Assembly: GCA_963817465.1 (NCBI GenBank)
Contig: CAWFOP010000007.1
Coordinates: forward strand, 302,856-366,855
DNA: 64,000 bases
Source of the DNA: an uncultured Acidobacteriota bacterium
Lineage (GTDB): Bacteria > Acidobacteriota > Terriglobia > Bryobacterales > UBA6623
Reading direction: 5' to 3'
Of the stretch, positions 7,727 to 43,960 are shown one piece after another. Made by a program: the position numbers and the translations under genes. The notes under the pieces were generated by a model. The model had not been told where the DNA came from, did not search any database, and saw only the letters and a list, made by a program, of their open reading frames with translations. Each line of letters starts with the position of its first letter. Positions within the stretch are counted from its first letter, which is position 1.

Positions 7727-9517
7727 TTAGCGGACTGCCGCTGTAGGCGTACCGATCTGTTCGCCGATGATCTCGCCTGAAACCACCAGCTCCACGCGAC
7801 GATTCTCCTGCCGGCCCGCGGAAGTTTCGTTGGAGGCCGTCGGCTGACTTTCTCCAAAACCTCGGGTCGTAACGGAGTCGGGCGCTATCCCTTGCGCCAT
7901 CAGGTAATCGCGAACGGCTTCGCCCCGCTTCTCCGAGAGCGTCTGGTTGTACTCGTCGCTGCCGACGTTATCGGTATGGCCTTCGACTTCCAGCTTCAGG
8001 CCCGGATGGCCCGAGATGACTCCGGCCACCTTCGCCAGCTTCTCCCGCGCCGCCGGCCGCAAGGCATACTTGGCCGTGTCGAAGAGGACGTCCGACATGT
8101 TGACGATCAAGCCGCGCGCGGAATCGCGGGTCGCAAGAATCGAGTTGAACTGCTGCAGGAGTTGCGCTCGCAGTTCCGCCCTTTCGGCTTCCGCCGCCGC
8201 CTTCTCTTGGGCCGCACGATCCAACTCGGCTTGTGCGGCGGCACGCTGCTCATCCATCGCTTGCTGCAGGCGCGCGGCCTCGGCCCGATTTGCGGCGGCA
8301 AGCGCCTCGTTCTCTTCCTTCAGACGCCGGGCTTCTTCTTGGGCCGCGGTGCGCTGGGCTTCGTTCTGTTGCGTCAAGCGGTCCGCTTCGGCTCTGGCCG
8401 CCGCCGCCTGGGCTTCGTTCTGCTGCGTCAAGCGGGCAGCTTCGGCTCTGGCCGCCGCCGCCTGAGTCTCATTCTGCTGCGCCAAGCGGTTCGCCTCGGC
8501 CTGTGCCGCAGCCGCCTGGGCGTCGCTTTCGCGGCGCATGCGGTCGGCGTTTTCTTGGGCGGCGAGTCTGGCCGCTTCGGCCTCGCGTGTGACGCGGTCG
8601 GTCTCGGACTGTGCGGCTGCGCGTTCTTCCCTTGCCTGCGCTTCGCGATCCGCCGCAGCTTGGCGCTCATTCGCCAGGCTTTCCTCTTCCTGACGCTGCA
8701 CGGCGATGGCGCGGGCGTCCTCCGCCGTTTGCACGGCTTGGCGCGCGGTCATCGTCACCGGTTTCTTGCCGGCATTGCGCTCTTGATACGCCTCGGCTTG
8801 TTCCAAGCTTTTCTGAGCCTTCGCAAAGGTATCGGAAGCGTAGCGGTCGGCGCCCATGCCCTTGGCGATCTGAACCGCGTTACGCGCCTCGTAGAGCTCG
8901 AGCGGGACCTTGCGATCGAGCTTGAGCGCCAATGGGTTCGCCAGCATCTGGTACTCGCCTCTCTTGAGCAGCTCGTACTTGGCGTCGATCTCTTCGATCT
9001 TGCCCTTCGTGTCCTCGCGCACCACGTTTTCCATCACGACGAGGTCGCTCGGCCGTGACACGGAGAAATAGGGTTCCGCGGTCACCACCAAGCCGAAAAC
9101 CTGCATTTCGGTCGTCACGTTCAGCTTGCTCTTGGTTCCGTTCAGCAGGATCTCGCCCAAGTTGGCCGTACGGCCTTCGGGGCTGATGGCCCAGAGCACG
9201 TAGGTGAGGTATTCGGCGCCGTTCTTGTTCGCCGGGGTGAGGTCGTCGAACTCGACCTCGATCTCGATGTAGCCCTGCTTGCTTTCGACTTTAGCCTCGC
9301 CGCGGGCCTTGGGCATCAGCGAAGTGCCGGCGAAATCGATCTTCGTCGCGCCGCTGCGGTGCCGGTAGTTGATCGCCTTCGCGGTTCGCGCGATTCCGGT
9401 CGCCCGGAATATGGGCATCGTCTCCGCCTGCAGAACCGCATCGGCATCCGCCGGCGTCTGAGCGGACAAGAACCCAACGGCGGCTAAGAATACACCCATC
9501 ATCATCGTCTTTTTCAT
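7727..9517 (-). CDS. OmpA-family peptidoglycan-associated protein with long Ala/Gln/Glu-rich coiled-coil
   Basis: Signal peptide MKKTMMMGVFLAAVGFLSAQ. C-terminal OmpA_C domain (LFDTAKYALRP..LEVEGHTDNVGSDEYNQTLSEKRGEAVRDYL..NRRVELVV). Confidence 0.85.
   Translation of the reverse strand: MKKTMMMGVFLAAVGFLSAQTPADADAVLQAETMPIFRATGIARTAKAINYRHRSGATKIDFAGTSLMPKARGEAKVESKQGYIEIEVEFDDLTPANKNGAEYLTYVLWAISPEGRTANLGEILLNGTKSKLNVTTEMQVFGLVVTAEPYFSVSRPSDLVVMENVVREDTKGKIEEIDAKYELLKRGEYQMLANPLALKLDRKVPLELYEARNAVQIAKGMGADRYASDTFAKAQKSLEQAEAYQERNAGKKPVTMTARQAVQTAEDARAIAVQRQEEESLANERQAAADREAQAREERAAAQSETDRVTREAEAARLAAQENADRMRRESDAQAAAAQAEANRLAQQNETQAAAARAEAARLTQQNEAQAAAARAEADRLTQQNEAQRTAAQEEARRLKEENEALAAANRAEAARLQQAMDEQRAAAQAELDRAAQEKAAAEAERAELRAQLLQQFNSILATRDSARGLIVNMSDVLFDTAKYALRPAAREKLAKVAGVISGHPGLKLEVEGHTDNVGSDEYNQTLSEKRGEAVRDYLMAQGIAPDSVTTRGFGESQPTASNETSAGRQENRRVELVVSGEIIGEQIGTPTAAVR
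8354..8515. repeat. 3 x 54-nt (18-aa) tandem repeat inside the OmpA coiled-coil
   Basis: Units start at 8354, 8408 and 8462 (ctgggcttcgttctg.tgcgtcaagcgg...gcttcggctctggccgccgccgc). They encode AAAARAEA(A/D)RLTQQNEAQ. Confidence 0.8.
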
Positions 9518-9562
9518 GTTTTTGTCTCTATTCCTGATTTCATCCGACCCTGAGGCAGCGGC

Positions 9563-10519
9563 CTAAAGTTTGCCAACGAGCGTTTCCGCTCCAACGCCCA
9601 GTTTCTCGGCGGTCTCCCGATCCAGCCGTCCGGTGACCGGCAGCCCTTCCGCCTTCTGGTAAGAGCGAATGCCTGCTCGTGTGCGAGCGCCCATGACGCC
9701 GTCGGCCGGTCCGACGTCGAAGCCTTTCTCGTTCAGGGCGTCCTGGACTTGCCTGACATCGTCGGGGCGCATCGAGGTCCGGCTCACTTTCGCGTGCGAC
9801 GGGCTGGCCTTCTTCGCGTCCCGGCGGTCGGCCGCCGACATCATGCCTTGGCCTTCGCGCGCCGAGTGTTTGTTGAGCAGAGCCAGCAGCTCGCCGGCCG
9901 CCTGCGGCGGCCGCACGTCCGTCGTGACGATCTCGCGATTCTCGAGTCGCTTGCCGTAGAGCGTCTCGTTGTCGTCGAGGTCCTGCCGCAAGGTGGCGCC
10001 CGCGAGCGCAACGCCGGCAAAGAGCCCTTGAGACCGCGACCAAGACAGGATGTCCGCCTTCATCTGCGCGTCGGTCTGAGCGGTCGCCGTGCGTCCCACC
10101 GGGCCCGCGGCGACGGATCCTTCCGCGCCTAGCGTGAACTTGCTGGAAAGCAGCTTGTCCGCTCCGCGCTCACTCATCACGAGCATGATCAAGTCCGTCG
10201 ACGATCCGCCGATCTGGAAGCCGACGCTGCCGCCCTCGATCCGCACAGTCCCGGGCGCCGACCAACCGGTTTCATTCGCTTTCCGGCAAGACAGGTAGCC
10301 TTTGCCGTACTTGCCTCCGAAAACGAAGGCCGCGGTCTTGAGTCCCGGCACGATCACGATGCAATGCGCCTTGGTGAGCAGATCTTGCGGGATGCTGGTG
10401 TCCGTGGCCGCCATGATTTCGGAAAACACCGCGGCGGCTTCTCCCAACCGTTCCGCAGGTTCCTTGTCCTGCGCCAGCAACGGTGAAAGCGCCAACAACG
10501 CAATTAGTAGCAGTCTCAT
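9563..10519 (-). CDS. secreted SYLF (Ysc84/DUF500) lipid-binding domain protein with C-terminal peptidoglycan-binding domain
   Basis: True start taken as MRLLLIALLALSPLLA (ATG 10519, GAGG upstream). SYLF core: IVIVPGLKTAAFVFGGKYGKGYLSCR..GGSVGFQIGGSSTDLIMLVM..FTLGAEGSVAAGPVGR. PG_binding_1-like tail: VRQVQDALNEKGFDVGPADGVMGARTRAGIRSYQKAEGLPVTGRLD. Confidence 0.75.
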   Translation of the reverse strand: MRLLLIALLALSPLLAQDKEPAERLGEAAAVFSEIMAATDTSIPQDLLTKAHCIVIVPGLKTAAFVFGGKYGKGYLSCRKANETGWSAPGTVRIEGGSVGFQIGGSSTDLIMLVMSERGADKLLSSKFTLGAEGSVAAGPVGRTATAQTDAQMKADILSWSRSQGLFAGVALAGATLRQDLDDNETLYGKRLENREIVTTDVRPPQAAGELLALLNKHSAREGQGMMSAADRRDAKKASPSHAKVSRTSMRPDDVRQVQDALNEKGFDVGPADGVMGARTRAGIRSYQKAEGLPVTGRLDRETAEKLGVGAETLVGKL

Positions 10520-10581: not shown

Positions 10582-10597
10582 TGCACGCACTGCGCCA
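10582..10597 (-). promoter_or_regulatory. candidate sigma54 -24/-12 promoter P1 (TGGCGCAGTGCGTGCA)
   Basis: The minus strand reads TGGCGC-AGTGC-GTGCA (GG-N10-GC), about 60 nt upstream of the SYLF start. A weaker alternative, TGGCCTTAGCGGCGCA, lies at 10562-10547. Confidence 0.45.
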
Positions 10598-10825
10598 TTC
10601 GCAGGGGGACGACAACCCCGCGGTCCTACTGACTTGGTTGCTGCAGGCTCGCGGCGCCGGGCGGCGGATGCGGCAAGAAGAGCCAGGAACGAGGGGGTGA
10701 TTGGACTTACACCGGTTCTTGCGCCGGCGATCGGCCGTCAAGTTCCGGGGCGTATGGTCGCAACAGCGCGGCCATTTACGTGGCGTTCCAAGGACACGAC
10801 GCCGTTGAAACCGACGCCGTGAACG

Positions 10826-10859
10826 TAACCTCAGGCCGTCAACTGACCGCGTATGGTCA
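10826..10859. promoter_or_regulatory. tandem dyad pair D1: TAACC-TCAGGC-CGTCA / TGACC-GCGTAT-GGTCA
   Basis: Perfect dyad at 10844-10859, overlapping the EBP stop codon. A 9/10 copy lies at 10826-10841, offset by exactly 18 bp. Confidence 0.55.
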
Positions 10860-12986
10860 GAAGTCCTTACGCGAGATCTGGAGCCTCCGCATCATGGCGT
10901 TCAAGGTCGTCCGCGGCAATCCGAGCCGGTTCGCCGCCCGGCTGACGACTCCGCCGGTCTCCCTGAGCACGTGCAGAATGTGGTCCCGGTCCACCTGCTC
11001 CAGCGTACTATCGTGAGCGGATTCGAAGGATTCCGTGCGCAACTCGGCTAACGGAGCCCTAAGCTCGGCGCCCGTTGAAAGGATGACCGACCGCTCGATG
11101 AAGTTCTCCAGTTCGCGGACGTTCCCGGGCCAAGAGTACTGCACGAGAGCGGACATGGTCTCGGGCGAGATCGTGCGAACGTTCCGCCTTAGTTGCCCGG
11201 CGTATTTCTCTACGAAGTGGCGGGAGAGGATGGGAATGTCTTCGGCGCGGTCCCGGAGAGAGGGCATCGTGATCGGAAACACCTTCAAGCGGTAATAGAG
11301 ATCGCTTCGGAAGAGTTTGTCCCCCATCATCTGCTGCAAATTTCGGTTCGTCGCCGCCAGGAGCCTGACGTCGATCGGGATCGTGCGCGTGCCGCCGAGT
11401 CTTTCGAACTCCTTTTCCTGCAGGGCGCGCAGGAGCTTGGGCTGCAGGTCGAGCGGAATATCCCCGACCTCATCGAGTAACAGCGTTCCGCGGTGCGCCA
11501 GCTCAAAGCGGCCGATCTTGCGCGACAAAGCGCCGGTGAAGGCGCCGCGTTCGTAACCGAACAGCTCGCTTTCGAGCAGGCCGGTCGGGATCGCAGCGCA
11601 GTTCAATGTGATGAAGGGATGCTCACTGCGACCGCCTAGGTGGTGAATCGCGCGCGCCACCAGCTCCTTGCCCGTCCCGGTTTCACCCAGAATCAGCACC
11701 GTCGCCTCAGTCGGCGCAACGATCTCCACCTGCTGGAGAACGCGTTGCAAGGCGACCCCGCGCCCCACGATCCTTTCAAACGGAGCGCTGACAGGGAGAT
11801 CGTCTTGGACGCTCTCCTCTTTGCGCGGCTTGACGTCCTGCACAAACGCGGTCCACCGGAATGGGGCAAGGCTAAGAACGGCGCGGGTTTCGAGCACCCG
11901 GATGCGGGAGCCATCCTTGCAAACGTATTCCTTTTCGAAGGGCGTGCACGCGCCGTGGATCAAGGCCTCCTCGTGCGCCCGTTCGTCGAGCAGCGCGTGC
12001 TCGGGCGGAGTAAGATCCGGCCAATAAGGGGAGCCTGTAAGCAACTCTTCTTGGCTGTAACCCACCATCTCCAGGAATCCGTCGCTGGCGCTGGTTATGC
12101 GGTCAAATTCGCCTGCGACGACCCCGGTCTTGGGGTACCTAGGCCGGTCTCCGCCCTCGCCCCTTTCGCCGTTCTTTGCCTTCTGATCCGCTTCGTGGCG
12201 ATCGGTAAAGTCGCGCACGATGCTCGCATAACCTTGCAGTTGCTCGCGGTCGTCTTTGAGAGCGACCGTGAGCACGTTCGCCCAGAAGAGCGAGCCGTCC
12301 TTTTTGCGGCGCCAGCCCTGCGCTCCGAAGCGGCCCCTGGCGGCGGCTTCGGTCAACTCGACTTGAGGTTCCCCACATTGAGCGTCCTTCGCCGAATACA
12401 GCAGGGACAAATACCGCCCGACGGCTTCTTGCCGCTGGTGGCCGAAAAGCCGCTCGGCTCCCGAGTACCACGCGGCCACCCGTCCATCCGGGTCCAGCAG
12501 CAGCAGCGCGATGTCCTTTGCCCACACCGGTACGCCTTTCGACGCGCCGTTCGTTCGTGCAAGCCTTCCCAAGATCTTTTGGTCTGTCCCGTCCCGGAGG
12601 ACCAACAAATGCCGTTGGGGCAAAACGCTGGAACAGGCCGCGAAAAGAGCTTCTCGTGCGGCGCCATCGGGAAACAGCAGCGGAAGGGCGCCCTCTTGGC
12701 GCCCTTGCGTCAAAAGATCCCGCCAGAGGCCATCCACGCGCGGCAGGAAACTCGGGTCGACAAAGTCGTCAATCTTGCGTCTGAGAAGCTGATCTCTCGA
12801 GGATCCCAGCAGCTGGCCTGCGCCGAAGCTAGCTTCCAGGCATTCGCGGGAGTCGCCTGCGATCAAGACCGGTACGGAGGAGTGGTAGAGTACGGCCCGG
12901 AGCAAGAGCTCAAGCTGTTCGGAACCCTTTTCGGCCAACCAATCGCTGCTTCCCTGCCGCGTTGCGGCGGGCTTCACCATGTACAC
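10857..12986 (-). CDS. sigma54-dependent transcriptional activator (PAS-PAS-AAA+-Fis HTH enhancer-binding protein)
   Basis: Walker A GETGTGKE. GAFTGA loop (ERGAFTGA). C-terminal HTH AANRLGLPRTTLNAMMRRLQI. There are two PAS-like blocks (..AAWYSGAERLFGHQRQEAVGRYL.. and ..GFLEMVGYSQEELLTG..). Confidence 0.9.
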   Translation of the reverse strand: MYMVKPAATRQGSSDWLAEKGSEQLELLLRAVLYHSSVPVLIAGDSRECLEASFGAGQLLGSSRDQLLRRKIDDFVDPSFLPRVDGLWRDLLTQGRQEGALPLLFPDGAAREALFAACSSVLPQRHLLVLRDGTDQKILGRLARTNGASKGVPVWAKDIALLLLDPDGRVAAWYSGAERLFGHQRQEAVGRYLSLLYSAKDAQCGEPQVELTEAAARGRFGAQGWRRKKDGSLFWANVLTVALKDDREQLQGYASIVRDFTDRHEADQKAKNGERGEGGDRPRYPKTGVVAGEFDRITSASDGFLEMVGYSQEELLTGSPYWPDLTPPEHALLDERAHEEALIHGACTPFEKEYVCKDGSRIRVLETRAVLSLAPFRWTAFVQDVKPRKEESVQDDLPVSAPFERIVGRGVALQRVLQQVEIVAPTEATVLILGETGTGKELVARAIHHLGGRSEHPFITLNCAAIPTGLLESELFGYERGAFTGALSRKIGRFELAHRGTLLLDEVGDIPLDLQPKLLRALQEKEFERLGGTRTIPIDVRLLAATNRNLQQMMGDKLFRSDLYYRLKVFPITMPSLRDRAEDIPILSRHFVEKYAGQLRRNVRTISPETMSALVQYSWPGNVRELENFIERSVILSTGAELRAPLAELRTESFESAHDSTLEQVDRDHILHVLRETGGVVSRAANRLGLPRTTLNAMMRRLQISRKDF

Positions 12987-13107
12987 TCCCAGCGTCGTCG
13001 AGCACGCGGGCTACCCGGCCGCAGAATATCGTCGCGCGACGAAAGCTTTACTGAATCGTTAAGGGGACTTTAGAGCGGCCGTCCCGCGCTAAGCGTACCA
13101 CTTCGGT

Positions 13108-13141
13108 TGACCATGGGGCGTCAATCGACTTCGCGCGGTCA
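13108..13141. promoter_or_regulatory. tandem dyad pair D2: TGACC-ATGGGG-CGTCA / CGACT-TCGCGC-GGTCA
   Basis: Perfect dyad at 13108-13123. An 8/10 copy at 13126-13141 is offset by 18 bp. The pair lies in the divergent region between the EBP gene and the small membrane protein gene. Confidence 0.55.
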
Positions 13142-13265
13142 CATTCGCCGCGGCTCGAGACGCCGTCTCTCAGGCTCACAGACCCAACCCTTACGGTCAC
13201 GATACCGCGCGAACTCAATACGTTACATGCCGCGGCGCATGCTGACCGGCCCGGGCCGCGAGGAT

Positions 13266-13281
13266 TGGTCGGCTGCGTGCC
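13266..13281 (+). promoter_or_regulatory. candidate sigma54 -24/-12 promoter P2 (TGGTCGGCTGCGTGCC)
   Basis: GG-N10-GC with GTGC at -12, 30 nt upstream of ATG 13311. GAGGAG lies between the promoter and the start. Confidence 0.45.
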
Positions 13282-13310
13282 TTCCCTTAGGCCTCGAGGA
13301 GAACAAGAGT

Positions 13311-13502
13311 ATGCCTTTGATCAATTTGGTCATTGCCCTGATCGTGGTCGGCGTCCTGCTGTATTTGGTCAACCGGTACATCCCGATGGCCTCCAGCATC
13401 AAAACAATTTTGAACGTGGTCGTCGTGGTCGCGGTTTGCGTTTGGGTCTTGCAGGCGACCGGAATCTGGGGCGGGCTGGCCGACTACCGGGTCGGCCCTT
13501 AA
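13311..13502 (+). CDS. 63-aa two-TM membrane protein (Thivi_2564-like family)
   Basis: MPLINLVIALIVVGVLLYLVNRYIPMASSIKTILNVVVVVAVCVWVLQATGIWGGLADYRVGP. The internal ATG of track ORF 13107..13502 has GAGGAG upstream. The family name is recalled from memory. Confidence 0.65.
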   Translation: MPLINLVIALIVVGVLLYLVNRYIPMASSIKTILNVVVVVAVCVWVLQATGIWGGLADYRVGP

Positions 13503-13564
13503 CAGGCTCAACGGACGGGGCGGCGGACAACGCGGCGCGAGTGAAATCCAGCTAGGAGATCGAC

Positions 13565-15514
13565 ATGATTAGCGACAGACAGTTAAGTGGCTCAGCAAGC
13601 GGCGCCGGGCGGTTCGCCGCGGTGGCCGCCGCAATTCTCCTGGCGCTATGCCTTGCGCCTCAGCTCGGCGCGCAAGGCGGGTTCAACGGCCCGGGCCGCT
13701 ACGAGATCTCCAATTTGAAATCCGGCAAGGTGCTCGAGTTGGACCGGAAGGATCAGATCGGCGTGATTCAGTTCTCTTCGCGGGGAACCGACAGCCAAGC
13801 CTGGGATATTCGCGCCGCGGGCGGAGGCTTCTATTCGTTGCAGAACGTGACGAACGGCAACGCTCTCGGAGCCGCGGGGACCGAAAACAGCACGCCGGTC
13901 CAGGTCACTCGCTTTGACGGCGGAATCGCGCAGCAGTGGCGCTTCGACGCGGGCAAGGATGGCAACGCGCTCATCGTCTCCCGCCTGGGCAAGACACTGG
14001 ACATCGCGGGAGCGGCGACGTCGGACGGAGCCCGCGTTCAGACCTATGAGGGCAACGGCGACTCGAACCAGCGGTTCAGCTTTCGGCTGGTGTCGGGAAT
14101 CCGCCCCGGCGGTTCGAATGGCAATGCCGCCGGCAACGTCGTGACGATCTACCCGGCCGCCGAGCGCGCCAACCCGGCGGTCGGCAACCGCACGGAATTG
14201 AAGCCGGGCTGGAACATGTTCTCGCCTCAACAGGACGTCGAAATGGGACAGCAGGCGTCCGCGGAAGTTGCGGGACAAGTGCTGCTGCTCAACGACTCGC
14301 GGGTGGACAACTACCTCAACAGCCTGGGCCAACGCCTGGCGGCGAATGCTCCCGGCGCCAAGTACCCCTATACCTTCAAGACCGTCAACGACAAGGGCAT
14401 CAACGCTTTTGCGCTTCCCGGCGGGTTCGTCTACGTCAACCGCGGCGTGATTGAAACGGCCGACAACGAAGCGCAACTTGCCAGCGTGATGGCGCACGAA
14501 ATTTCGCACGTGGCGCTGCGCCATGGCACCAACCAAGCCAGCAAGGCTTCGGTCGCGCAGATGCCGTTGGCGATCCTGGGCGGCCTGCTGGGCGGCGACT
14601 CCACCGCAGCCGCTCTGGCGCAGCTTGGCGCCGGCTTCACGGTGAACTCCATCCTGCTCAAGTACTCACGCGACGCGGAAAGCCAGGCCGACCTCATGGG
14701 CACGCAAATCCTTTTTGATTCCGGCCTCGATCCGCGAGCGATGGGACAGTTTTTCGGGAAGCTCCAGGGCGAAAACGGCATCGCGTTCTTCAACTCCCAT
14801 CCCAATCCGGACAGCCGTATCGAGCGCGTCAACGAGGAGGCGGCCGGCCTCGGCGTTTCGCAGAACAATTCGAGGAACGCTTCCCAGGAGTTCGATCAGA
14901 TCAAGCGCTACGTTCAGTCTCTGCCTGCGCCGCGGCCCAACCAACTCCAATCGCAGCAACAACCGAACGCATCCAGCAGCCCGAACGCAACGTCGGATCG
15001 CTTCGTGACCTTCGAAAACAGAGTACTGCGAATGAGCTACCCGGACAACTGGAAGACCTATGGGCAGGGCGACGCCGTGACCATATCGCCGCCGGGGGGA
15101 ATGGTGAGCGACGGTAACGGCAATCAAGCCATGGCTTACGGCGTCCTGGTGAACGTGTACGCGCCGCATTCGGGCAACTACGGTCGCCAGTTACAGGGGC
15201 CCGGCTACGGACAGGGCTCCGGGCCAACGTTGGAAGATGCGACGGACCAGTTGGTCCAGGATCTGCGCCAGTCCAATCAGAACCTGCGCGTGGTTCGCAG
15301 CCACGAGCCTATCGACGTGGGCGGGCAGAACGGGCTATCCACCTACTTGTCCAACGATTCCCCTATCGCCGGCGCACGCGAGACCAACTGGCTGGTGACC
15401 GTGCCGCAGCTTGACGGGGTGTTGTTCTTCGTTTTCACCGCCCCGGAGCGTGAGTTCCAAGGTTATGAAAGCGCGTTCCAGCGCATGCTCTATTCCGCCC
15501 GAGTGAGCCGCTGA
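13565..15514 (+). CDS. secreted ricin-type beta-trefoil lectin / M48 zinc metalloprotease fusion
   Basis: Signal peptide, then QxW-like lectin repeats (SQAWDIR, QQWRF, NQRFSF), then AFALPGGFVYVNRG..MAHEISHVALRHG (HExxH of M48). Confidence 0.85.
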   Translation: MISDRQLSGSASGAGRFAAVAAAILLALCLAPQLGAQGGFNGPGRYEISNLKSGKVLELDRKDQIGVIQFSSRGTDSQAWDIRAAGGGFYSLQNVTNGNALGAAGTENSTPVQVTRFDGGIAQQWRFDAGKDGNALIVSRLGKTLDIAGAATSDGARVQTYEGNGDSNQRFSFRLVSGIRPGGSNGNAAGNVVTIYPAAERANPAVGNRTELKPGWNMFSPQQDVEMGQQASAEVAGQVLLLNDSRVDNYLNSLGQRLAANAPGAKYPYTFKTVNDKGINAFALPGGFVYVNRGVIETADNEAQLASVMAHEISHVALRHGTNQASKASVAQMPLAILGGLLGGDSTAAALAQLGAGFTVNSILLKYSRDAESQADLMGTQILFDSGLDPRAMGQFFGKLQGENGIAFFNSHPNPDSRIERVNEEAAGLGVSQNNSRNASQEFDQIKRYVQSLPAPRPNQLQSQQQPNASSSPNATSDRFVTFENRVLRMSYPDNWKTYGQGDAVTISPPGGMVSDGNGNQAMAYGVLVNVYAPHSGNYGRQLQGPGYGQGSGPTLEDATDQLVQDLRQSNQNLRVVRSHEPIDVGGQNGLSTYLSNDSPIAGARETNWLVTVPQLDGVLFFVFTAPEREFQGYESAFQRMLYSARVSR

Positions 15515-15562
15515 GGCGGTCCGTCGATCGCAAGAAACGTTCTAACAGAGAGGTAACTTCAT

Positions 15563-15715
15563 ATGTTGTGGACAATCGTATTAATCCTATTCGTTTTGTG
15601 GGTTCTAGGCTTGGTCACTTCTTACACGATGGGCGGATTCCTACACATTCTGCTTGTGCTGGCGCTCGTCATCTTCATCATCAACTTACTGCAAGGCCGC
15701 AGGACAATCGTCTAG
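15563..15715 (+). CDS. 50-aa membrane protein (lmo0937-like family); below the ORF-track cutoff
   Basis: MLWTIVLILFVLWVLGLVTSYTMGGFLHILLVLALVIFIINLLQGRRTIV. GAGAGG lies 8 nt upstream. The segment has locally lower GC. Confidence 0.6.
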   Translation: MLWTIVLILFVLWVLGLVTSYTMGGFLHILLVLALVIFIINLLQGRRTIV

Positions 15716-15943
15716 TCGTACGGTTACAGATATGAAATCACAGCATGAGCTCGCCCGCGAGGCGAAAGCCCGGAGCTGATCGGCATCGCTCCCATGCGGT
15801 TCGCCGCAGCCTTCGCCGGCATTACAAACCGATCCAGCGGCGACTCCAGAAGTATCTCGAGATTCGTCTCATTTCCACGGCTGCGCCTCGCCGTCGGTCG
15901 GTCGGTTAGTTCTTTTTTTAAGGTTAGAAGAGTGGGAAAACCA

Positions 15944-16507
15944 ATGACGACATCACATCAAATTTCGCCGTGCAAATCCAACGACATGCCGGTCATGACC
16001 CGACAGCAGTACGCCGCCGCCTATAACCACGGTTACCCCAAGACAATTGGATTCATGCTTTCGCGCGGAGCGTCCCGCGACATATCCGAAGACATGGCGC
16101 AGGCGGCGTGGGCAAAAGGTTGGCAATATCGAGGGCAGATCCGCGATCCCTTGAAAGTCGATTCGTGGGTGAATTCGATCGCATTCAATCTTTTCCGGGG
16201 TTCGTTCCGCCAGGCGCCGACCGTAGAGCTGCTCCCCGCCGACCATCCGGCTTCGCCGGGAACGAGCGCCGCTACGATCGACTGTCAGCGGCTCCTCGCG
16301 CAGTGCTCGCCTTCCGAACGAGAGTTGATCGACGGATGCTACGTGGCGGGCTATACCAGCGCGCAGCTCGGCCGCCGCTTGGGCTGTTCGGCTGTTGCAG
16401 TGCGGGTCCGCCTGCTGCGGCTTCGTCGCCGGCTCCAGATAGCCGTGAAGCCAAGGGCCCCCTTTGTGGCTGACGCCGTCGCCGCGCGCCGGGTATCGAG
16501 TGAATGA
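15944..16507 (+). CDS. ECF-type RNA polymerase sigma factor
   Basis: Region 2-like: ISEDMAQAAWAKGWQYRGQIRDPLKVDSWVNSIAFNLFRGSFR. Region 4 HTH: ELIDGCYVAGYTSAQLGRRLGCSAVAVRVRLLRLRRRL. Start taken at ATG 15944. Confidence 0.8.
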   Translation: MTTSHQISPCKSNDMPVMTRQQYAAAYNHGYPKTIGFMLSRGASRDISEDMAQAAWAKGWQYRGQIRDPLKVDSWVNSIAFNLFRGSFRQAPTVELLPADHPASPGTSAATIDCQRLLAQCSPSERELIDGCYVAGYTSAQLGRRLGCSAVAVRVRLLRLRRRLQIAVKPRAPFVADAVAARRVSSE

Positions 16508-16588
16508 GCGTCCGGCAGGGCACTGAGAAGAGAGAGCGGAAGGCGCCGTCGGTTTTTATCGAGCCCTGGCTCGCCTTTCAGAAGAGGC

Positions 16589-16622
16589 TGACCGCAAGAC
16601 GTCAAGTGGCGGTCAGCGGTCA
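16589..16622. promoter_or_regulatory. tandem dyad pair D5: TGACC-GCAAGA-CGTCA / TGGCG-GTCAGC-GGTCA
   Basis: Perfect dyad at 16589-16604. A 9/10 copy at 16607-16622 is offset by 18 bp. Confidence 0.55.
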
Positions 16623-16742
16623 CTTTTTTGGCGCGCTCCCCTCGCCTGTGCAGGGCGGCCAGTTGCGAATGATCGGGCAGGATATTGAAAACAAACGACT
16701 GGGAGCCGGCCACAGCAGGCCTTCCGAGGCCTGCTGTCGTTG

Positions 16743-16758
16743 TGGCGCACGGATTGCC
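16743..16758 (+). promoter_or_regulatory. candidate sigma54 -24/-12 promoter P5 (TGGCGCACGGATTGCC)
   Basis: The best match of the five to TGGCAC-N5-TTGC. It lies 80 nt upstream of ATG 16838 and 121 nt downstream of D5. Confidence 0.55.
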
Positions 16759-16837: not shown

Positions 16838-17614
16838 ATGAGTTACTTGAAAATTGCAACGATCGGCTTGTCCCTGGCGCTTCTTGGCGCCGTGATATTG
16901 CCAAACGCTTCGGCGGATGAATGGAATCGAAAGACCGTGGTCACATTCAGTGGGCCCGTGGAGATTCCGGGAGTTCACCTGACGGGCTGGGGCGTATTGC
17001 CGGCGGGCACATACGTGTTCAAGATCCTGGACTCGCAGTCCAATCGGCACATCCTGCAGATCTTCAACAAGGAAGAAACGCAGGTTTATGCCACGATCCT
17101 CGCCATCCCCAACTATCGCCTCAAGGCGACCGACAAGACCGTGATCACCTTCAGCGAGAGGCCGGCCGGAGAGCCGGAGGCGCTCCGCGCCTGGTTCTAT
17201 CCGGGGAGGAACTGGGGCGAGGAGTTCGTGTATCCGAAGCAGAGAGCGATCGAGCTCGCGAAAGAGACCAACCAGGTCGTTCTCTTCACGCCCGCTGAGA
17301 TCGAAGAAGAAGTCGCCGAGCCGATCGAGTCGGCGGCGGAGCCTGTAGTGGTAGAGCTGAAGCAGGCGCCTGTGAAGGCAATCAATCCTAGCGGCGAAGA
17401 GGTTGAACTGGCCCAGGCGGTGACGCCTCCCCCAGCCGCGGAGGTCGCGCAGGCGCCCGCACCGGCTCGGCGCCGGACACCCGTACAAACGGCGCAGAAC
17501 ATTCCGCAGACTCTCCCGAATACGGCGGGCCTGTTGCCGCTGTTCGGGCTGTTCGGAATGCTGGCTTTAGGCGGAGGCGCGGCGCTCCGGCTTGTACGGC
17601 GTCGCATCGGCTAA
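16838..17614 (+). CDS. secreted acidobacterial protein with LPNTAG + hydrophobic + RRR C-terminal sorting-signal-like tail
   Basis: Signal peptide MSYLKIATIGLSLALLGAVILPNASA. Conserved-looking N-domain (TVVTFSGPVEIPG..YVFKILDSQSNRHILQIFNK..). C-terminus QTLPNTAGLLPLFGLFGMLALGGGAALRLVRRRIG. Confidence 0.7.
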   Translation: MSYLKIATIGLSLALLGAVILPNASADEWNRKTVVTFSGPVEIPGVHLTGWGVLPAGTYVFKILDSQSNRHILQIFNKEETQVYATILAIPNYRLKATDKTVITFSERPAGEPEALRAWFYPGRNWGEEFVYPKQRAIELAKETNQVVLFTPAEIEEEVAEPIESAAEPVVVELKQAPVKAINPSGEEVELAQAVTPPPAAEVAQAPAPARRRTPVQTAQNIPQTLPNTAGLLPLFGLFGMLALGGGAALRLVRRRIG

Positions 17615-17761
17615 GTACTCGGTAACGGAATGGGCCATCCGGCGCGTCACCCGGCGCGCCGCTGGTCCTTTCTTGCGGGGGTCGCCGTAAGCGCCTCGCA
17701 AACGGAGCTCAACGACGGCGAAGTTCAGCAGGCGCGCGTGGCGCCGGCGCACGGGAGTGAG

Positions 17762-18313
17762 ATGAGCGTATCGATGATTGACGACGACAATGTGGTGGCG
17801 GTCTTCAGCGCGAATGCGAGGGTGGAAAGCGCCGTTCAAACGCTTCGGAAGTCCGGTTACGACATCCGCAAAATATCGATTTTCCTGAACGAGGGCCGCT
17901 TCAAGCAGCGAATTGTCGGCTTCTACGGCAGGCGCGACCTCACAGGGGACTGGCGAGTTTACGGCGTTCTCTGGGGCGGCGTTCTCGCACTGCTGTTGGG
18001 AATCGCTTTATCCACGATCTCCAGGACGTGGTTCGGGTTGGGAATGATCGCTGAACCGCTGACGGTCGGGTTCGGCGCCGCCTTATGCATCGGAGGACTG
18101 GGCGCGATCAGCGCAGGCGCATACAGCATGGCCTCACCGAACCACAGCGTCCTCAAACGCAACCTTCCGATAGAGAGGATCGATGAGTTCCGCCTGGTGG
18201 CTTGCGACGCCGCGGCGGCGGCGGCGGCGCGGGACATCATCGGCGAACGGCGCCCAGCCATGTCGGGCGTGCTTTCGGGGGCGCCTGTTTACCACGCCGG
18301 AGCAGGGGCGTGA
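17762..18313 (+). CDS. membrane protein with N-terminal general-stress-protein-17M (YflT)-like domain and Gly-rich TM region
   Basis: NVVAVFSANARVESAVQTLRKSGYDIRKISIF resembles the YflT/GSP17M domain. Next come VYGVLWGGVLALLLGIAL and GFGAALCIGGLGAISAGAY. GGGAGTGAG lies upstream of ATG 17762. Confidence 0.45.
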   Translation: MSVSMIDDDNVVAVFSANARVESAVQTLRKSGYDIRKISIFLNEGRFKQRIVGFYGRRDLTGDWRVYGVLWGGVLALLLGIALSTISRTWFGLGMIAEPLTVGFGAALCIGGLGAISAGAYSMASPNHSVLKRNLPIERIDEFRLVACDAAAAAAARDIIGERRPAMSGVLSGAPVYHAGAGA

Positions 18314-18408
18314 TCCCTCGCAAGAGCCAGGGTGAGAGGGCGTTGAATGATGATCTGTCGCAATCGCCGCCTCGGAAACGACGGGAGCTAGGAACCAAGG
18401 TTAGACCC

Positions 18409-20142
18409 ATGAAAGATACCCATGTCGGCGCGCCTGTCCCTAGACGAAATCGGAGTCCGATCAGGCCCGGCCGGCATGAAACCAAAGCGCGTGGAATGGC
18501 CGTGCTCACTACGCCCCTGATCAACAAGGGGACGGCCTTCACGACGGAGGAGCGAATTGATCTGGGCCTCACCGGCCTGCTCCCTCCGGCCATCAGCACT
18601 CTGGAAGATCAAACGCGGCGCGCCTACATTCAATACCAGCGGCTGCTCGATCCGTTGAGCAAGAACGTCTACTTGACTGCGTTGCACGACCGCAACGAGG
18701 TTCTGTTCTACCGGCTGCTCGCCGATCATCTGCGGGAGATGATCCCCATCGTCAACGACCTGACCGTGGGTCTGGCCGTGGAGCGATATCACCATGAGTT
18801 CCGGCGGCCCGGAGGCGTGTATCTGTCAATCGACCACCCTGAAGAGATCGAGGAGGCGCTTGGAAATCTCCACGCCGGCCCGGACGACATCGACCTCGTC
18901 GTCGCGACCGATGGCGCGCAGGTTCTGGGCCTCGGCGACTGGGGTGTCGGCGCCATCGAGATTTCGATCGGCAAGCTGGCGATCTTTACCGCCGCCGGAG
19001 GAATCGACCCGTTGCGGGGGATCCCGGTCGTGCTCGACGTCGGCACCAATCGGGAAAGCCTGCTCAACGATCCGATGTATATCGGGAACCGGCACGGCCG
19101 GGTGGGCGGGGAGCGCTATGACGCATTTATCGACGCTTACGTCCAAGCGGTGCGGAAGTTCTTTCCGAAGGCCGTGCTGAACTGGGCGGACTTTACAAGC
19201 GCCAGCGGCCGCCGCATTCTCGAGAAGTACCGCGGCGAGTCTCCGACCTTCAACGACGAACTGCAGGGCACCGGCGCCATAACGCTCGCGGCCGCGATCT
19301 CTGCAGGGCGCGTCTGCGGAGCGCCGCTGCGAAACCAACGCGTCGTGATCTTCGGCGCGGGTGTGGCCGGCATCGGAATCGCCGACCAGCTCCGCGACGC
19401 CATGGTGCGGGAAGGCCTGTCGAAGCAGGATGCGATCGCGCGCATCTGGTGCGTGGACCGGGCCGGACTTCTCCGCGAAGACATGGCGGGAGTTCAGCTC
19501 GACCCCTACCAGGCGCCGTACGCCCGCCCGAAGGCGGACGCTCACGCCTGGCAACGCTATGGAGCCGACATCGGCCTGGCCGAAGTCGTGCACCAAATAC
19601 ATCCGACGATGCTGGTCGGCGCGTCGGCTTCTCCCGGCGCCTTCACGAAGGCGATCGTCCAAGAGATGGCCGCCCACGCGCCGCGGCCGATCATTTTTCC
19701 GATTTCGAGCCCCGCCTCGCTGGCCGAGGCGACGCCGGCCGACCTGATCGCATGGACCAACGGCCGCGCCCTGGTCGCCACCGGCAGCTCCTTCCCTCCT
19801 GTCACCCACAAGGGAACGACCTACGTCATCGGCAACGTCAGCAACGCACTACTCTATCCGGGGCTGAGCCTCGGCGTCATCGTATCCCGGGCCAGGCGAA
19901 TCACGGACGGCATGTTGGCCGCGGCGGCGAACGCCGTATCCAGCCTCGTCGCCGTTCATTTGCCTGGAGCGTCCTTGCTCCCCCATGTGGACAACTTGCG
20001 CGGCGTCTCATCGACAGTAGCCCTCGCGGTAGCCGCGGCGGCGGTGGCGGAAGGGGTTGCCGACTTCAGGCCGGGCGACATCGTTCAACAAGTGCTTGAG
20101 GCGATGTGGAAACCCGAGTACTGCCCGCTGCGGGCGATTTGA
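18409..20142 (+). CDS. NAD(P)-dependent malic enzyme (large, SfcA/MaeA type)
   Basis: LINKGTAFTTEERIDLGLTGLLPP.., VATDGAQVLGLGDWGVGAIEISIGKL, FNDELQGTG, VIFGAGVAGIGIA. The start (ATG 18409) is uncertain. Confidence 0.85.
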   Translation: MKDTHVGAPVPRRNRSPIRPGRHETKARGMAVLTTPLINKGTAFTTEERIDLGLTGLLPPAISTLEDQTRRAYIQYQRLLDPLSKNVYLTALHDRNEVLFYRLLADHLREMIPIVNDLTVGLAVERYHHEFRRPGGVYLSIDHPEEIEEALGNLHAGPDDIDLVVATDGAQVLGLGDWGVGAIEISIGKLAIFTAAGGIDPLRGIPVVLDVGTNRESLLNDPMYIGNRHGRVGGERYDAFIDAYVQAVRKFFPKAVLNWADFTSASGRRILEKYRGESPTFNDELQGTGAITLAAAISAGRVCGAPLRNQRVVIFGAGVAGIGIADQLRDAMVREGLSKQDAIARIWCVDRAGLLREDMAGVQLDPYQAPYARPKADAHAWQRYGADIGLAEVVHQIHPTMLVGASASPGAFTKAIVQEMAAHAPRPIIFPISSPASLAEATPADLIAWTNGRALVATGSSFPPVTHKGTTYVIGNVSNALLYPGLSLGVIVSRARRITDGMLAAAANAVSSLVAVHLPGASLLPHVDNLRGVSSTVALAVAAAAVAEGVADFRPGDIVQQVLEAMWKPEYCPLRAI

Positions 20143-20418: not shown

Positions 20419-20452
20419 CAACCATATACGGTCATTTGACGATGGGGCGTCA
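20419..20452. promoter_or_regulatory. tandem dyad pair D3: CAACC-ATATAC-GGTCA / TGACG-ATGGGG-CGTCA
   Basis: Perfect dyad at 20437-20452; its ATGGGG spacer is identical to that of D2. An 8/10 copy at 20419-20434 is offset by 18 bp. Confidence 0.5.
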
Positions 20453-20564: not shown

Positions 20565-20580
20565 TGGCCATCAGAGTGCG
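20565..20580 (+). promoter_or_regulatory. candidate sigma54 -24/-12 promoter P3 (TGGCCATCAGAGTGCG), no obvious intact gene downstream
   Basis: GG-N10-GC with GTGC at -12. The preceding GATTGG is identical to that of P2. Confidence 0.35.
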
Positions 20581-20833: not shown

Positions 20834-20950
20834 ATGATACAAGCTCAATACACAGCGACCTACCACCGGGGCTACTCCAAGACCCTGGGATTCATGCAGT
20901 CACGCGGGATGTCTCTCGGCGTATCCGAGGACTTGGCCCAGGGCGCCAAT
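20834..20950 (+). pseudogene. truncated paralog of the ECF sigma factor (N-terminal ~37 codons only)
   Basis: MIQAQYTATYHRGYSKTLGFMQSRGMSLGVSEDLAQGA aligns with MTRQQYAAAYNHGYPKTIGFMLSRGASRDISEDMAQAA of the 15944 gene. Similarity stops about 50 nt before the convergent GH gene ends. Confidence 0.5.
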
Positions 20951-20995
20951 CCGAAGTCGCACGTCCGGCGCGTACGACTCCTCCTCAATCAGATT

Positions 20996-22171
20996 TCAGG
21001 GCCGGCGCACTATGGCTTCGAGGAATGGCGTTTGGCCTCGTTCCACAGCGACGGCCGCATAAAGGTACATTGCCGCTGACCAACTCTGCCAATCCTGCCC
21101 TCGCGCGACGCCGTCCGAAGCGCCAAACCATTCGTTGAAACCGTAAGGCAACGACGCGTCGCGCCCCCGCCCGACCAGTTCGGTCAGCGCCGCCAGTTTT
21201 TCGCACGCCAGTTCCCGGCGGCCCGCGGCCACTAGCGCGGCGACATAGAACCCGCAGACGAAAGGCCAGACTCCCCCGTTGTGGTATTCGCCCGGCAGGT
21301 TGAAACGCTCGTACCGGGGTCGCCAATCCGGATCTTCGCGTTGGATATAGGGGAATAGGCACGGCGGCAGATCGAGCGCCAGAAAGCCGCGCTCCCGCAG
21401 CGCCTTGCACTCCGCTTCAACCCACGCCACAATCGCCTGCGCTCGCGATGGTGACGCCAAGCCGCTGAGGATCGCCAGGGAGTTGCCCAGAAGGTCGAAT
21501 CGTTCACTATTGCTGACCTTATAAGCCCAAAGGGCATAGTATGGCTTGTTCGCCACGGTGAGCCCCTCATGCACGTGGCGCATCCCCTCCCCGCCGCGAA
21601 TGTCGAGACAATCCAGGATCGCCGCTACCCCCTCAGCCTCCTGGTCCAAACCGTACAGCCTGAGATACATGTAGACCAAGGCGTTCACATACAGCCCGTA
21701 CCCTAGAACCCATTGCTCGTCCCGCCAATCGCTCGTCGGCAGTTGCGCAACGACGATCATGTCGTCCGGACTCTGGTAGCGCATCCACTGCATCGCCAAA
21801 CTCACTGCCGACTCTAGAAAACGAGCTTCTCCCGTTTTGCGCCGATACAGCGCAACGCCGATCAAAAACAGGGGCGTCGTGTCACTCGCGCCGCGGTCGT
21901 CGGGATCGTGCACCAAGGACGGGATATGTCCGAGTCGAGTCTGTGTCACCGCAAGCTTTTCCAGCACGCGCCGCAACGATGCGGTCAGATCCTCGTCCTC
22001 GCTGACAAGAACCCCGAAAGCGGCGATCATGAGGTCTCGCGTGTAAGGTTCCGGATATCCCCACCCAGCGGTCCGAGGCAAGTCCTCGAACGGCCCGTGA
22101 GCGTTGTGCCGCAGCACGTTCAGCGCCGCCTGCTTCATTTCGTCGATCCGCGGTTGAGAGAAGGCGGACAT
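20996..22171 (-). CDS. (alpha/alpha)6-barrel glycoside hydrolase, GH100 (neutral invertase)/amylo-alpha-1,6-glucosidase-like
   Basis: GEYHNGGVWPFVCGFYVAALV, SDWRDEQWVLGYGLYVNALVY and QDWQSWSAAMYLYA are typical of this fold. Specificity is unknown. Confidence 0.6.
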   Translation of the reverse strand: MSAFSQPRIDEMKQAALNVLRHNAHGPFEDLPRTAGWGYPEPYTRDLMIAAFGVLVSEDEDLTASLRRVLEKLAVTQTRLGHIPSLVHDPDDRGASDTTPLFLIGVALYRRKTGEARFLESAVSLAMQWMRYQSPDDMIVVAQLPTSDWRDEQWVLGYGLYVNALVYMYLRLYGLDQEAEGVAAILDCLDIRGGEGMRHVHEGLTVANKPYYALWAYKVSNSERFDLLGNSLAILSGLASPSRAQAIVAWVEAECKALRERGFLALDLPPCLFPYIQREDPDWRPRYERFNLPGEYHNGGVWPFVCGFYVAALVAAGRRELACEKLAALTELVGRGRDASLPYGFNEWFGASDGVARGQDWQSWSAAMYLYAAVAVERGQTPFLEAIVRRP

Positions 22172-43898: not shown

Positions 43899-43960
43899 GT
43901 TTCGCAATCCATTGCCTCTTTATCGCTTGCTGTCGTATCACTCGCGTTCCGACGGCGCCG

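Follow-up and report, generated by a model that had tools for sequence, protein, structure and literature searches.

Paired TGACC-N6-GGTCA dyads upstream of -24/-12 elements as candidate enhancers of a PAS-type sigma54 activator in an uncultured Acidobacteriota bacterium

A 64-kb stretch of DNA from an uncultured Acidobacteriota bacterium (assembly GCA_963817465.1, contig CAWFOP010000007.1), referred to here in its full length as the window, was analyzed for a recurrent palindromic element and for the relationship of this element to a nearby regulatory gene. The gene, at 10857-12986, encodes an enhancer-binding protein (EBP) with PAS domains, an AAA+ domain, and a C-terminal helix-turn-helix (HTH). 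The element is a pair of dyads of the form TGACC-N6-GGTCA; it occurs five times (D1 to D5), each time upstream of a sequence of the sigma54-type -24/-12 form (P1 to P5). The initial annotation of this DNA had proposed that the pairs constitute the cis-code of the adjacent PAS/AAA+ sigma54 activator. The EBP gene, the pairs, and the -24/-12 elements are as follows, with distances measured from the edge of the pair to the TGG of the promoter element.

10857-12986, minus strand: EBP gene, 709 amino acids from a GTG start (707 in the database copy).
10826-10859: pair D1, TAACCTCAGGCCGTCA-ac-TGACCGCGTATGGTCA, overlapping the EBP stop codon (10857-10859); proposed upstream activating sequence (UAS) of P1.
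10582-10597, minus strand: element P1, TGGCGCAGTGCGTGCA, 228 bp from D1; rank 7 in the window by position weight matrix (PWM).
13108-13141: pair D2, TGACCATGGGGCGTCA-at-CGACTTCGCGCGGTCA, in the divergent EBP/Thivi_2564 intergenic region; proposed UAS of P2.
13267-13282, plus strand: element P2, TGGTCGGCTGCGTGCC, 125 bp from D2 and 28 nt 5' of the Thivi_2564 ATG; weak by PWM.
16589-16622: pair D5, TGACCGCAAGACGTCA-ag-TGGCGGTCAGCGGTCA, intergenic; proposed UAS of P5.
16743-16758, plus strand: element P5, TGGCGCACGGATTGCC, 120 bp from D5; PWM rank 9 in the window.
20419-20452: pair D3, CAACCATATACGGTCA-tt-TGACGATGGGGCGTCA, in the 850 bp that separate two convergent genes, 112 bp from P3.
20565-20580, plus strand: element P3, TGGCCATCAGAGTGCG, 112 bp from D3; aligns with P2 and with the Thivi_2564 promoters of two related loci (L005 and L004).
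46329-46362: pair D4, TGACCGAGACTGGCCA-ta-TGACCAAATACGGTCA, overlapping the stop codon of an acetate kinase gene (46360-46362); proposed UAS of P4.
46248-46263, minus strand: element P4, TGGTACGCGGCGTGCT, 65 bp from D4; PWM rank 3 in the window.

Exactly five perfect TGAC[CG]-N6-[CG]GTCA dyads were detected in the window, at 10844, 13108, 16589, 20437, and 46347, which are the five positions first reported and the only ones. The accompanying claim that such a dyad would arise by chance less than once in 64 kb was borne out by dinucleotide-preserving shuffles, in which the mean was 0.38 dyads and a count of five was reached in none of 100. When the ten half-site positions of every 16-mer in the window were scored, each perfect dyad was found to have an imperfect partner (8-9 of 10 positions) at exactly +18 or -18 bp, again as had been described. 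A scan of offsets from 8 to 44 bp revealed five strong pairs at 18 bp and zero or one at any other offset; first-order Markov randomizations of the window gave an expectation of 0.017 pairs at the 18-bp offset. The element is 34 bp long and composed of two 16-bp palindromes, TGACC-N6-GGTCA, which are separated by 2 bp and set in an 18-bp register, with the half-site centers within each palindrome 11 bp apart. D2, D5, and D3 are intergenic and D1 and D4 overlap stop codons; the initial placement of the dyads outside coding sequence save for two on stop codons, with D1 on the EBP stop codon and D2 in the divergent region upstream of the EBP gene, was therefore correct. The 80-bp flanks of D1 to D5 are mutually 0.21-0.40 identical, which is the level of random sequence; thus, the five sites are not copies of a repeat element.

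The EBP was examined for its domains and closest relatives. A conserved PAS-like region at the N-terminus is followed, as assigned by Pfam, by two PAS domains, Sigma54_activat (PF00158, residues 407-572, E = 2e-68), AAA_lid_14, and HTH_8 (PF02954, residues 661-697). The sequences GETGTGKE (Walker A), LLLDEVGD, and GAFTGA are present, and the ERGAFTGA loop is invariant in 16 orthologues. With a Sigma54_activat domain that includes Walker A and Walker B, the GAFTGA loop, and a C-terminal HTH of the Fis type, the gene is, by its domains and motifs, a complete bacterial enhancer-binding protein; both Pfam and alignment thus recover the GAFTGA-containing PAS/AAA+ EBP that had been read at 10857-12986. 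A Response_reg domain was not matched by Pfam and PAS domains fill the N-terminus, which sets the protein apart from response regulators of the NtrC type. It scores below the equivalog cut-offs of all 25 NCBIfam families listed, with NifA, NtrC, NorR, AtoC, ZraR, PspF, PrpR, RtcR, and TyrR among the named EBP families compared; the best is FhlA (395.6 versus 830 bits), whose profile covers only residues 399-707, the AAA+ and HTH part. Many orthologues bear the automatic JGI label 'formate hydrogenlyase transcriptional activator', which we regard as unjustified given a score of 396 versus 830 bits over residues 399-707 only. The closest solved relative by sequence is the AAA+/HTH module of ZraR. 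More than 100 full-length orthologues were found at 60-74% identity, and the few that are named belong to Bryobacterales or Bryobacteraceae (Acidobacteriota). The recognition helix, PRTTLNAMM(R/K)KL, is nearly invariant across all orthologues examined, and this near-invariance parallels the invariance of the DNA half-site.

To place the pairs in a comparative setting, we used ten loci that consist of the DNA around EBP orthologues and two further loci (L135 and L136) that were fetched through orthologues of a 258-amino-acid target protein encoded downstream of D5. Nine of the ten EBP-orthologue loci were found to hold two to five dyad pairs, nearly all with the 18-bp offset, and in the tenth (L134) a lone perfect dyad precedes the EBP gene by 147 bp. 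Both target-retrieved loci carry a pair and a TGG-N9-TGC sequence upstream of the gene of the 258-amino-acid family; in L135, the gene order of the whole window is repeated, with pairs at the positions of D1, D2, and D5. Across the 247 kb of these twelve loci, which were not selected for spacing, 36 perfect dyads were counted versus 1.5 expected. Among strong pairs in the same DNA, 34 have an offset of 18 bp and three an offset of 19 bp, with at most four at any other offset; the 18-bp pairing sought in related genomes on the initial proposal is therefore present there. A second check that had been suggested, the frequency of dyads within genes, was made by hand against the gene calls of seven loci (L004-L011), in which perfect dyads were found only between genes or on stop codons, except for one that adjoins a doubtful start codon in L007. 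The positions relative to the regulator are likewise conserved: (i) in the window, L004, L005, L007, L009, L011, L132, L134, and L135, the EBP start is preceded at about 120-165 bp by a dyad or a pair; (ii) in the window, L005, L006, L133, and L135, the EBP stop codon falls within a pair, as it does in L004 with a 19-bp offset; and (iii) a pair equivalent to D5, in the interval between a sigma-like gene and the gene of the 258-amino-acid family, is found in L004, L005, L007, and L135. Because D2 sits at this conserved distance upstream of the EBP gene, the EBP probably autoregulates through it. Three loci that have only distant AAA+ relatives, retrieved from deltaproteobacterial metagenome-assembled genomes when the genome collection was scanned with the EBP, served as negative controls; they had no dyad pairs and no match to the HTH region. 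Thus, the motif co-occurs with the EBP gene across genomes, as is expected of a UAS.

These comparisons bear on the suggestion that the dyads arose by chance, or were copied from a repetitive or mobile element, and have no regulatory role. In GC-rich DNA, short palindromes may occur by coincidence, and a few low-GC metagenome matches obtained with the pattern (described below) are exact tandem duplications. Yet five dyads were never reached in the shuffles, the flanks of the window sites are unrelated, the sites are kept at orthologous intergenic positions while their flanks diverge, and the peak at 18 bp holds in the 247 kb of loci that were chosen on other grounds. The shuffles, the offset statistics, the flank comparison, and the 247-kb count together effectively refute this suggestion.

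Several further features were observed next to the EBP orthologues. A second EBP paralogue is encoded in L007 (1545-3554) in three open reading frames (ORFs), which correspond to PAS, Sigma54_activat, and AAA_lid plus HTH_8, respectively, and it has its own dyad pair at 1546-1579. Genes for a KaiC-like ATPase, KaiB, a PAS histidine kinase (HisKA_3), and a response regulator of the GerE type adjoin the EBP gene in L008 (14916-18688) and L133 (3848-8285), and in L133 this cluster lies directly upstream on the same strand. BON-domain and similar genes stand beside the EBP gene in some loci, without a demonstrated site. In L004, the 1.9 kb upstream of the EBP orthologue (8065-10000) have no called gene but include a conserved dyad pair at 9835-9868 and, 156 bp from it, a leftward TGG-N9-TGC element; this region may give rise to an RNA or contain an uncalled gene.

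A metagenome collection was subsequently scanned for exact matches to the perfect double dyad, TGACC-N6-GGTCA-N2-TGACC-N6-GGTCA, a pattern of 20 specified bases. At least 120 contigs were found to carry it, mostly from soil or peat and with 55-63% GC; the contigs listed (L012-L131), to which all counts below refer, average about 4.5 kb. The EBP is encoded on 21 of 120, mostly in full length and at 59-61% identity. The 258-amino-acid family is present on 57-69 of 120, malic enzyme on 40, the Thivi_2564 family on 35, and the sigma-like gene on 6. Two matches, L016 1913-1946 (41% GC) and L087 485-518 (53% GC), have a double dyad that is an exact tandem duplication of one 16-mer, and they probably belong to an unrelated element.

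The gene content of these contigs was used to ask whether a factor other than the PAS-EBP may bind the pairs, such that the PAS-EBP would be just a member or neighbor of the regulon. The candidates are a protein of the CRP/FNR family or another EBP. Sites of CRP/FNR proteins are well known to share the 5-N6-5 palindromic geometry, genes with cNMP_binding and HTH_Crp_2 domains are present in L008, L011, and L132, and an EBP of the REC-AAA+-HTH_8 type lies next to a pair-bearing target in L136, where the PAS-EBP is absent within 10 kb. However, Crp-family genes were found on 1 of the 120 contigs and nowhere in the window, compared with the 21 contigs that encode the PAS-EBP, and unbiased clustering of the ORFs on these contigs placed no DNA-binding regulator besides the EBP near the top. 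In addition, the pairs lie on the EBP stop codon and at a fixed distance 5' of the EBP start in most orthologue loci, the HTH of the EBP is nearly invariant where the motif is invariant, and tandem sites 50-135 bp upstream of -24/-12 elements correspond to the architecture of EBPs and not to class I or class II activation by CRP. We therefore consider it unlikely that a different factor is responsible.

Promoter elements were examined in the window, in orthologous alignments, and on the metagenome contigs. The initial annotation had placed each pair 67-229 bp upstream of a TGG-N10-GC sequence; all five quoted sequences are present, at 65-228 bp from the pair, and all are of the stricter form TGG-N9-TGC. 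The chance of finding the stricter form within 230 bp on one strand is about 0.10, versus 0.34 for the looser TGG-N10-GC. Each of P1 to P5 has the GG at -24 and the GC at -12 separated by 10 bases, in the TGG...TGC arrangement of sigma54 promoters, and P1, P2, and P3 are conserved in orthologous DNA, upstream of genes and facing them. An alignment of the spacer between the EBP and Ysc84 genes in the window, L005, and L004 revealed that the D1 pair and P1 (GGCG....TGCAC) are kept while most of the spacer has diverged, and P1 also resembles the Ysc84 promoters on other contigs, TGGCGCG-N2-TCGTGCA. An alternative promoter for D1 at 10759-10774, which would reduce the gap to 51 bp, was rejected as it is not conserved in L005 or L004, unlike P1. 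Similarly, when the D2 and D3 regions were aligned with the DNA upstream of the Thivi_2564 genes in L005 and L004, ATTGG-N9-TGC proved to be invariant. The sigma54 PWM scan that had been suggested as a check upheld P4, P1, and P5, which rank among the top ten of the window, but not P2 and P3, which were weak. As a discriminator, the E. coli-style PWM separated sites (mean 7.7 bits) from controls (6.3 bits) only weakly, and it under-scored promoters of the TGGACC/TGGCCC kind; its poor performance is explained by the local consensus, which on the pattern-retrieved contigs is TGG[A/C]CC..G..TGC[T/C/A]. It was replaced by an unweighted, orientation-controlled count of TGG-N9-TGC. In this count, 117 of the sequences around the pairs point away from the pair and 48 toward it, compared with 46 expected from background, and in the 50-100 bp bins the numbers are 60 versus 2. 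An outward TGG-N9-TGC at 40-170 bp accompanies 72 of 121 sites. Two or more dyad sites about 80-200 bp upstream of the start are typical of a UAS, and the pairs here are 50-135 bp, sometimes as much as about 230 bp, upstream of the -24 position. For recurrent target genes, the -24/-12 elements are 20-100 nt upstream of the start codons. When all pair-to-TGG distances of the metagenome contigs, L004-L011, and the window were pooled, sharp peaks were observed at 51 bp (13 cases) and at 75-76 bp (26 cases), and minor ones near 87, 98, 110, 123, and 134 bp. Helical phasing of these distances was rejected; the apparent period is about 12 bp, not 10.5 bp (vector strength 0.49), and is confounded, as orthologous promoters have the same spacing.

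The orientation of these elements also informs a second alternative, that the EBP mainly represses or autoregulates at sigma70 promoters and that the TGG-N9-TGC sequences are not working sigma54 promoters. It is established that PspF and NtrC repress their own genes through their enhancers; no convincing -24/-12 element faces the EBP gene from D2, which is 122 bp upstream of its start, and the scores of P2 and P3 by the E. coli-type PWM are low. A scan for sigma70 promoters and terminators around the EBP gene gave nothing usable. Counter to this alternative, the GAFTGA and Walker motifs are invariant, which implies that the activation machinery is under selection, and the -24/-12 elements are oriented and positioned relative to the pairs (the 60 versus 2 at 50-100 bp), are kept in orthologous alignments, and are set at a short distance 5' of recurrent target starts. 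We judge a mainly repressive function to be quite improbable.

Two additional sequences were noted in the promoter analysis. A block at about 10693-10710 on the minus strand, GTAAGTCCAATCAC, lies between D1 and P1 and is kept in the L005 and L004 spacers amid divergence; a DNA-bending protein or another regulator may bind there. The top -24/-12 match in the window, TGGCACGGCGCGTGCA at 50996-51011 on the minus strand (15.9 bits), sits just 5' of an alpha-glucan (glycogen) phosphorylase gene (48407-51100, minus strand). No TGACC dyad pair was found near it, and it presumably answers to an EBP other than the PAS-EBP.

Overall, the pairs in nine of ten orthologue loci and in both target-retrieved loci, together with the oriented promoters, support the initial proposal, and we assign a probability of about 0.8 to the reading that the five 34-bp elements are UASs (enhancers) of the PAS-PAS-AAA+-HTH_8 EBP, each feeding a -24/-12 promoter. 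The sites, their geometry, and their coupling to -24/-12 elements are conserved together with the EBP and a set of genes; from these sequences, we infer binding by the EBP, dependence on sigma54, the direction of regulation, and the physiological signal. A dimer of HTH_8 would occupy each palindrome, such that two dimers would be tethered per site, about 95-270 bp upstream of the transcription start. The N-terminal PAS domains would sense a signal, upon which the AAA+ domains would assemble as a hexamer; since there is no receiver domain, the EBP is not expected to be controlled by its own phosphorylation. DNA looping would then bring the hexamer to the closed complex of sigma54-RNA polymerase at the -24/-12 element, and the promoter would be opened by ATP hydrolysis and the GAFTGA loop.

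Several observations weigh against this reading. P2 and P3 score below 7.4 bits by the approximate E. coli-type PWM and fall outside the top ten of the window; they are nonetheless supported, because ATTGG-N9-TGC is invariant in the orthologous alignment. The gap of 228 bp between D1 and P1 is unusually long, compared with mostly 50-135 bp elsewhere, and the gene under D3/P3 is uncertain. The palindromic geometry shared with CRP/FNR sites has been mentioned. The metagenome contigs are phylogenetically related and, thus, their counts are not independent events and overstate them. A search of the window and all fetched loci, which together amount to 807 kb, revealed no RpoN box; RpoN is present in three of three Acidobacteria genomes surveyed (PMC3372290, Table 1), and we infer that rpoN is present in the source genome. 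Finally, the pair-bearing gene of the 258-amino-acid family in L136 stands beside an EBP of the receiver type, with no PAS-EBP within 10 kb. In that locus, the Response_reg-Sigma54_activat-HTH_8 EBP (7982-9391) and a YflT-like gene are immediately upstream of the gene of the 258-amino-acid family, and the receiver-type EBP may be an alternative or additional activator there.

The genes under the five units of the window were assigned from Pfam, NCBIfam, translation, and alignment as listed below.

9563-10519, minus strand: secreted protein with Ysc84 (SYLF) and PG_binding_1 domains, 318 amino acids from the ATG at 10519 (Pfam, NCBIfam); proposed D1/P1 target.
7727-9517, minus strand: OmpA-family protein (Pfam); probably the second gene of the D1/P1 unit.
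13311-13502, plus strand: membrane peptide of the Thivi_2564 family, 63 amino acids (NCBIfam NF041949); proposed D2/P2 target.
13565-15514, plus strand: ricin-B lectin and M48 peptidase (Pfam); probably in the D2/P2 unit.
15995-16507, plus strand: gene resembling sigma factors of the extracytoplasmic function (ECF) type, about 170 amino acids from M68 of the longest ORF (Pfam, NCBIfam).
16838-17614, plus strand: secreted 258-amino-acid protein with an LPxTG-like C-terminal sorting signal; proposed D5/P5 target.
17630-18313, plus strand: 227-amino-acid protein, second gene after P5; no Pfam or NCBIfam match.
18202-20142, plus strand: malic enzyme (Pfam), conserved as the third gene after P5; longest ORF, the true start being probably later.
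20834-21079, plus strand: ORF of 81 amino acids (tblastx, BLASTP); possible but uncertain D3/P3 target.
45967-46122, minus strand: DUF3309 membrane peptide, 51 amino acids (translation, Pfam); proposed D4/P4 target.

Under the proposed mechanism, D1/P1 would drive the Ysc84/PG-binding and OmpA-like genes. Their order downstream of the EBP gene is kept in L004, L005, and L135, and in L132 the Ysc84-OmpA gene pair lies about 3 kb from the EBP gene with a dyad pair of its own. D2/P2 would drive the Thivi_2564 peptide, the M48 peptidase gene, and probably the ECF sigma factor gene. The ricin-B lectin/M48 gene occupies the same position in L135 and is also present in L133. The ECF-like gene, whose start was set by alignment with L005 (2485-2994), is a conserved member of the cluster and is directly downstream of a pair and promoter in L032; it probably belongs to the D2/P2 unit.

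D5/P5 would drive the 258-amino-acid protein, the 227-amino-acid protein, and malic enzyme. A gene of about 215 amino acids is found in L135 at the position of the 227-amino-acid gene (a match by position only), and malic enzyme in L010 has its own dyad pair, at 8451. The 258-amino-acid family is the most frequent target family and has about 8000 database homologues at roughly 70% identity. The protein had no sequence match in Pfam, NCBIfam, or the PDB; its AlphaFold model has a mean predicted local distance difference test score (pLDDT) of 66, and Foldseek against the PDB returned nothing below E = 0.7. The C-terminus of the family consists of TLPxTAS followed by a hydrophobic stretch and a basic tail, and genes for a VWA-domain protein and a sortase follow the gene in L135 (13272-14863) and L136 (10976-12439), which suggests that the family may be anchored at the surface by sortase in a Gram-negative phylum.

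The remaining two units differ in clarity. D3/P3 would drive, with uncertainty, a truncated sigma-like ORF. The D3/P3 region aligns with the D2/P2 region, and by tblastx this ORF is the only conserved feature of the D3 gap. Residues 1-38 of the 81-amino-acid ORF are 58-63% identical to the N-terminus of the ECF-like sigma factor of the cluster, and it is probably a truncated paralogue of that factor. Scans of the window with Rfam and for tRNAs gave no match; thus, the gap is taken to hold no known RNA. D4/P4 would drive the DUF3309 peptide, a family that follows a pair and promoter in L068 and adjoins the EBP gene in L009. Between the DUF3309 gene and a phosphoketolase gene (41520-43907), a P-type ATPase at 43961-45743 (minus strand) appears to be split over two overlapping frames, of which 44511-45743 encodes the E1-E2_ATPase domain and 43961-45028 the HAD hydrolase domain; the cause is either a frameshift, as in a pseudogene, or a fault in the assembly.

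The content of the wider regulon was determined by clustering the first ORF downstream of each pair and promoter unit on the listed contigs. The families recovered were the 258-amino-acid secreted protein (33 contigs), Thivi_2564 (14), a membrane protein of about 104 amino acids with a weak DUF6804 match (14), Ysc84 (10), a WXXGXW-repeat protein of about 120 amino acids (6), a His/Tyr-rich protein of about 92 amino acids (5), YflT-like proteins (4), CsbD (4), a PAS histidine kinase (3), and DUF3309 (2). Single cases included DUF5670, GroES, a protein of the DksA/TraR type, malic enzyme, and ECF-like sigma factors. Among the relatives, GroES-GroEL genes are preceded by pairs in L004, L009, and L011, and an RRM protein is also a member. 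The families of four of the window units (D1, D2, D5, and D4) thus recur as targets elsewhere. Judging from the gene names only, the set resembles a regulon for stress and the cell envelope in Acidobacteriota of the Bryobacterales kind. The names CsbD and YflT derive from genes under sigmaB control. A broader proposal, in which the PAS-EBP together with sigma54 would govern a general response to stress, or dormancy, as its master regulator in much of the Acidobacteriota, is tentative, with the odds somewhat against it. If true, the EBP would be a functional counterpart of RpoS, sigmaB, or EcfG built on enhancer-dependent transcription, and its regulon would include (i) dozens of small envelope and stress proteins; (ii) a chaperonin copy; (iii) an ECF sigma factor, and hence a cascade; and (iv) the 258-amino-acid family, one of the most abundant uncharacterized families of secreted proteins in soil metagenomes. 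In the nanoxia transcriptome of Acidobacterium capsulatum, stress genes were induced and sigma54 was not mentioned (PMC11636273).

The system was compared with characterized EBPs and stress regulators. It resembles NtrC (NR-I) at glnAp2 of enteric bacteria, in that (i) both proteins are sigma54 activators of the AAA+ class that have a GAFTGA loop and, at the C-terminus, an HTH_8 dimer of the Fis type; (ii) two dyad-symmetric sites with half-site centers about 11 bp apart lie upstream of a -24/-12 promoter; and (iii) the activator autoregulates through the enhancer, as is probable for the EBP here, and a pair of dimers on the DNA would seed the active oligomer. It differs in the half-site (TGCACC-N5-GGTGCA for NtrC versus TGACC-N6-GGTCA here), in the N-terminus (a receiver domain in NtrC, PAS domains in the EBP, which reaches 316 versus 559 bits at the NtrC equivalog cut-off), and in the regulon, which serves nitrogen in the case of NtrC and apparently comprises stress and envelope genes here. 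In addition, the dyad centers are 18 bp apart, and the dyads abut, versus about three helical turns for glnAp2. PspF at pspA is similarly an EBP without a receiver domain, its gene is divergent from the target operon with the UAS in the shared intergenic region, an arrangement that permits autoregulation, and its targets are small membrane or envelope-stress proteins. However, PspF has no sensory domain and is controlled by the binding of PspA, whereas the EBP has a PAS-type sensory region of about 400 residues and misses the PspF cut-offs (277 versus 444 bits for TIGR02974 and 227 versus 529 bits for NF008622); the regulon here is spread over multiple loci, and no pspA homologue was noted in the annotated neighborhoods. 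FhlA, the best NCBIfam match through its AAA+ and HTH parts, is also a large EBP with an N-terminal sensory region other than a receiver, but that region is of the GAF type in contrast to the PAS domains of the EBP, and no hyc or hyp operon is linked to the gene here. With sigmaB of Bacillus, RpoS of enterics, and EcfG of Alphaproteobacteria, the likeness is in overlapping gene content, and the small membrane peptides, OmpA-like proteins, chaperonin, and DksA-like factor found here recall a general stress regulon; those systems use a dedicated stress sigma factor with partner switching, in contrast to the combination of sigma54, a PAS-EBP, and enhancers proposed here.

The mechanism is the standard architecture of enhancer-binding proteins and is not new. 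The motif, the activator subfamily, and the regulon appear to be undescribed: a search of the literature gave no description of the motif, of the EBP subfamily, or of an acidobacterial sigma54 regulon, in line with the initial statement that none was known for the motif and gene set. Acidobacteria are unmentioned in the main text of Francke et al. 2011. The Acidobacteriota rank with the commonest bacteria in soil, and next to nothing is understood of their gene regulation; the present finding offers a concrete motif, a specific regulator, and a delimited set of genes, all three open to testing. The motif is unlike the sites of NtrC, NifA, NorR, FleQ, XylR, GlrR, and TyrR. The proposed code would tie about a dozen uncharacterized families (the protein of about 250 amino acids with a sortase signal, Thivi_2564, DUF3309, DUF5670, the DUF6804-like protein, and others) to a single signal. 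If this signal were stress or energy limitation, the system would show how slow-growing soil bacteria enter persistence.

The neighborhood of the EBP cluster was found to include genes besides those of the regulon. A GT4 glycosyltransferase gene lies near the cluster in the window (25811-29580), in L010 (881-6560), and in L004 (20427-22115), and it is accompanied by a GH130 gene in the window and L010, which suggests that the conserved neighborhood extends past the regulon genes.

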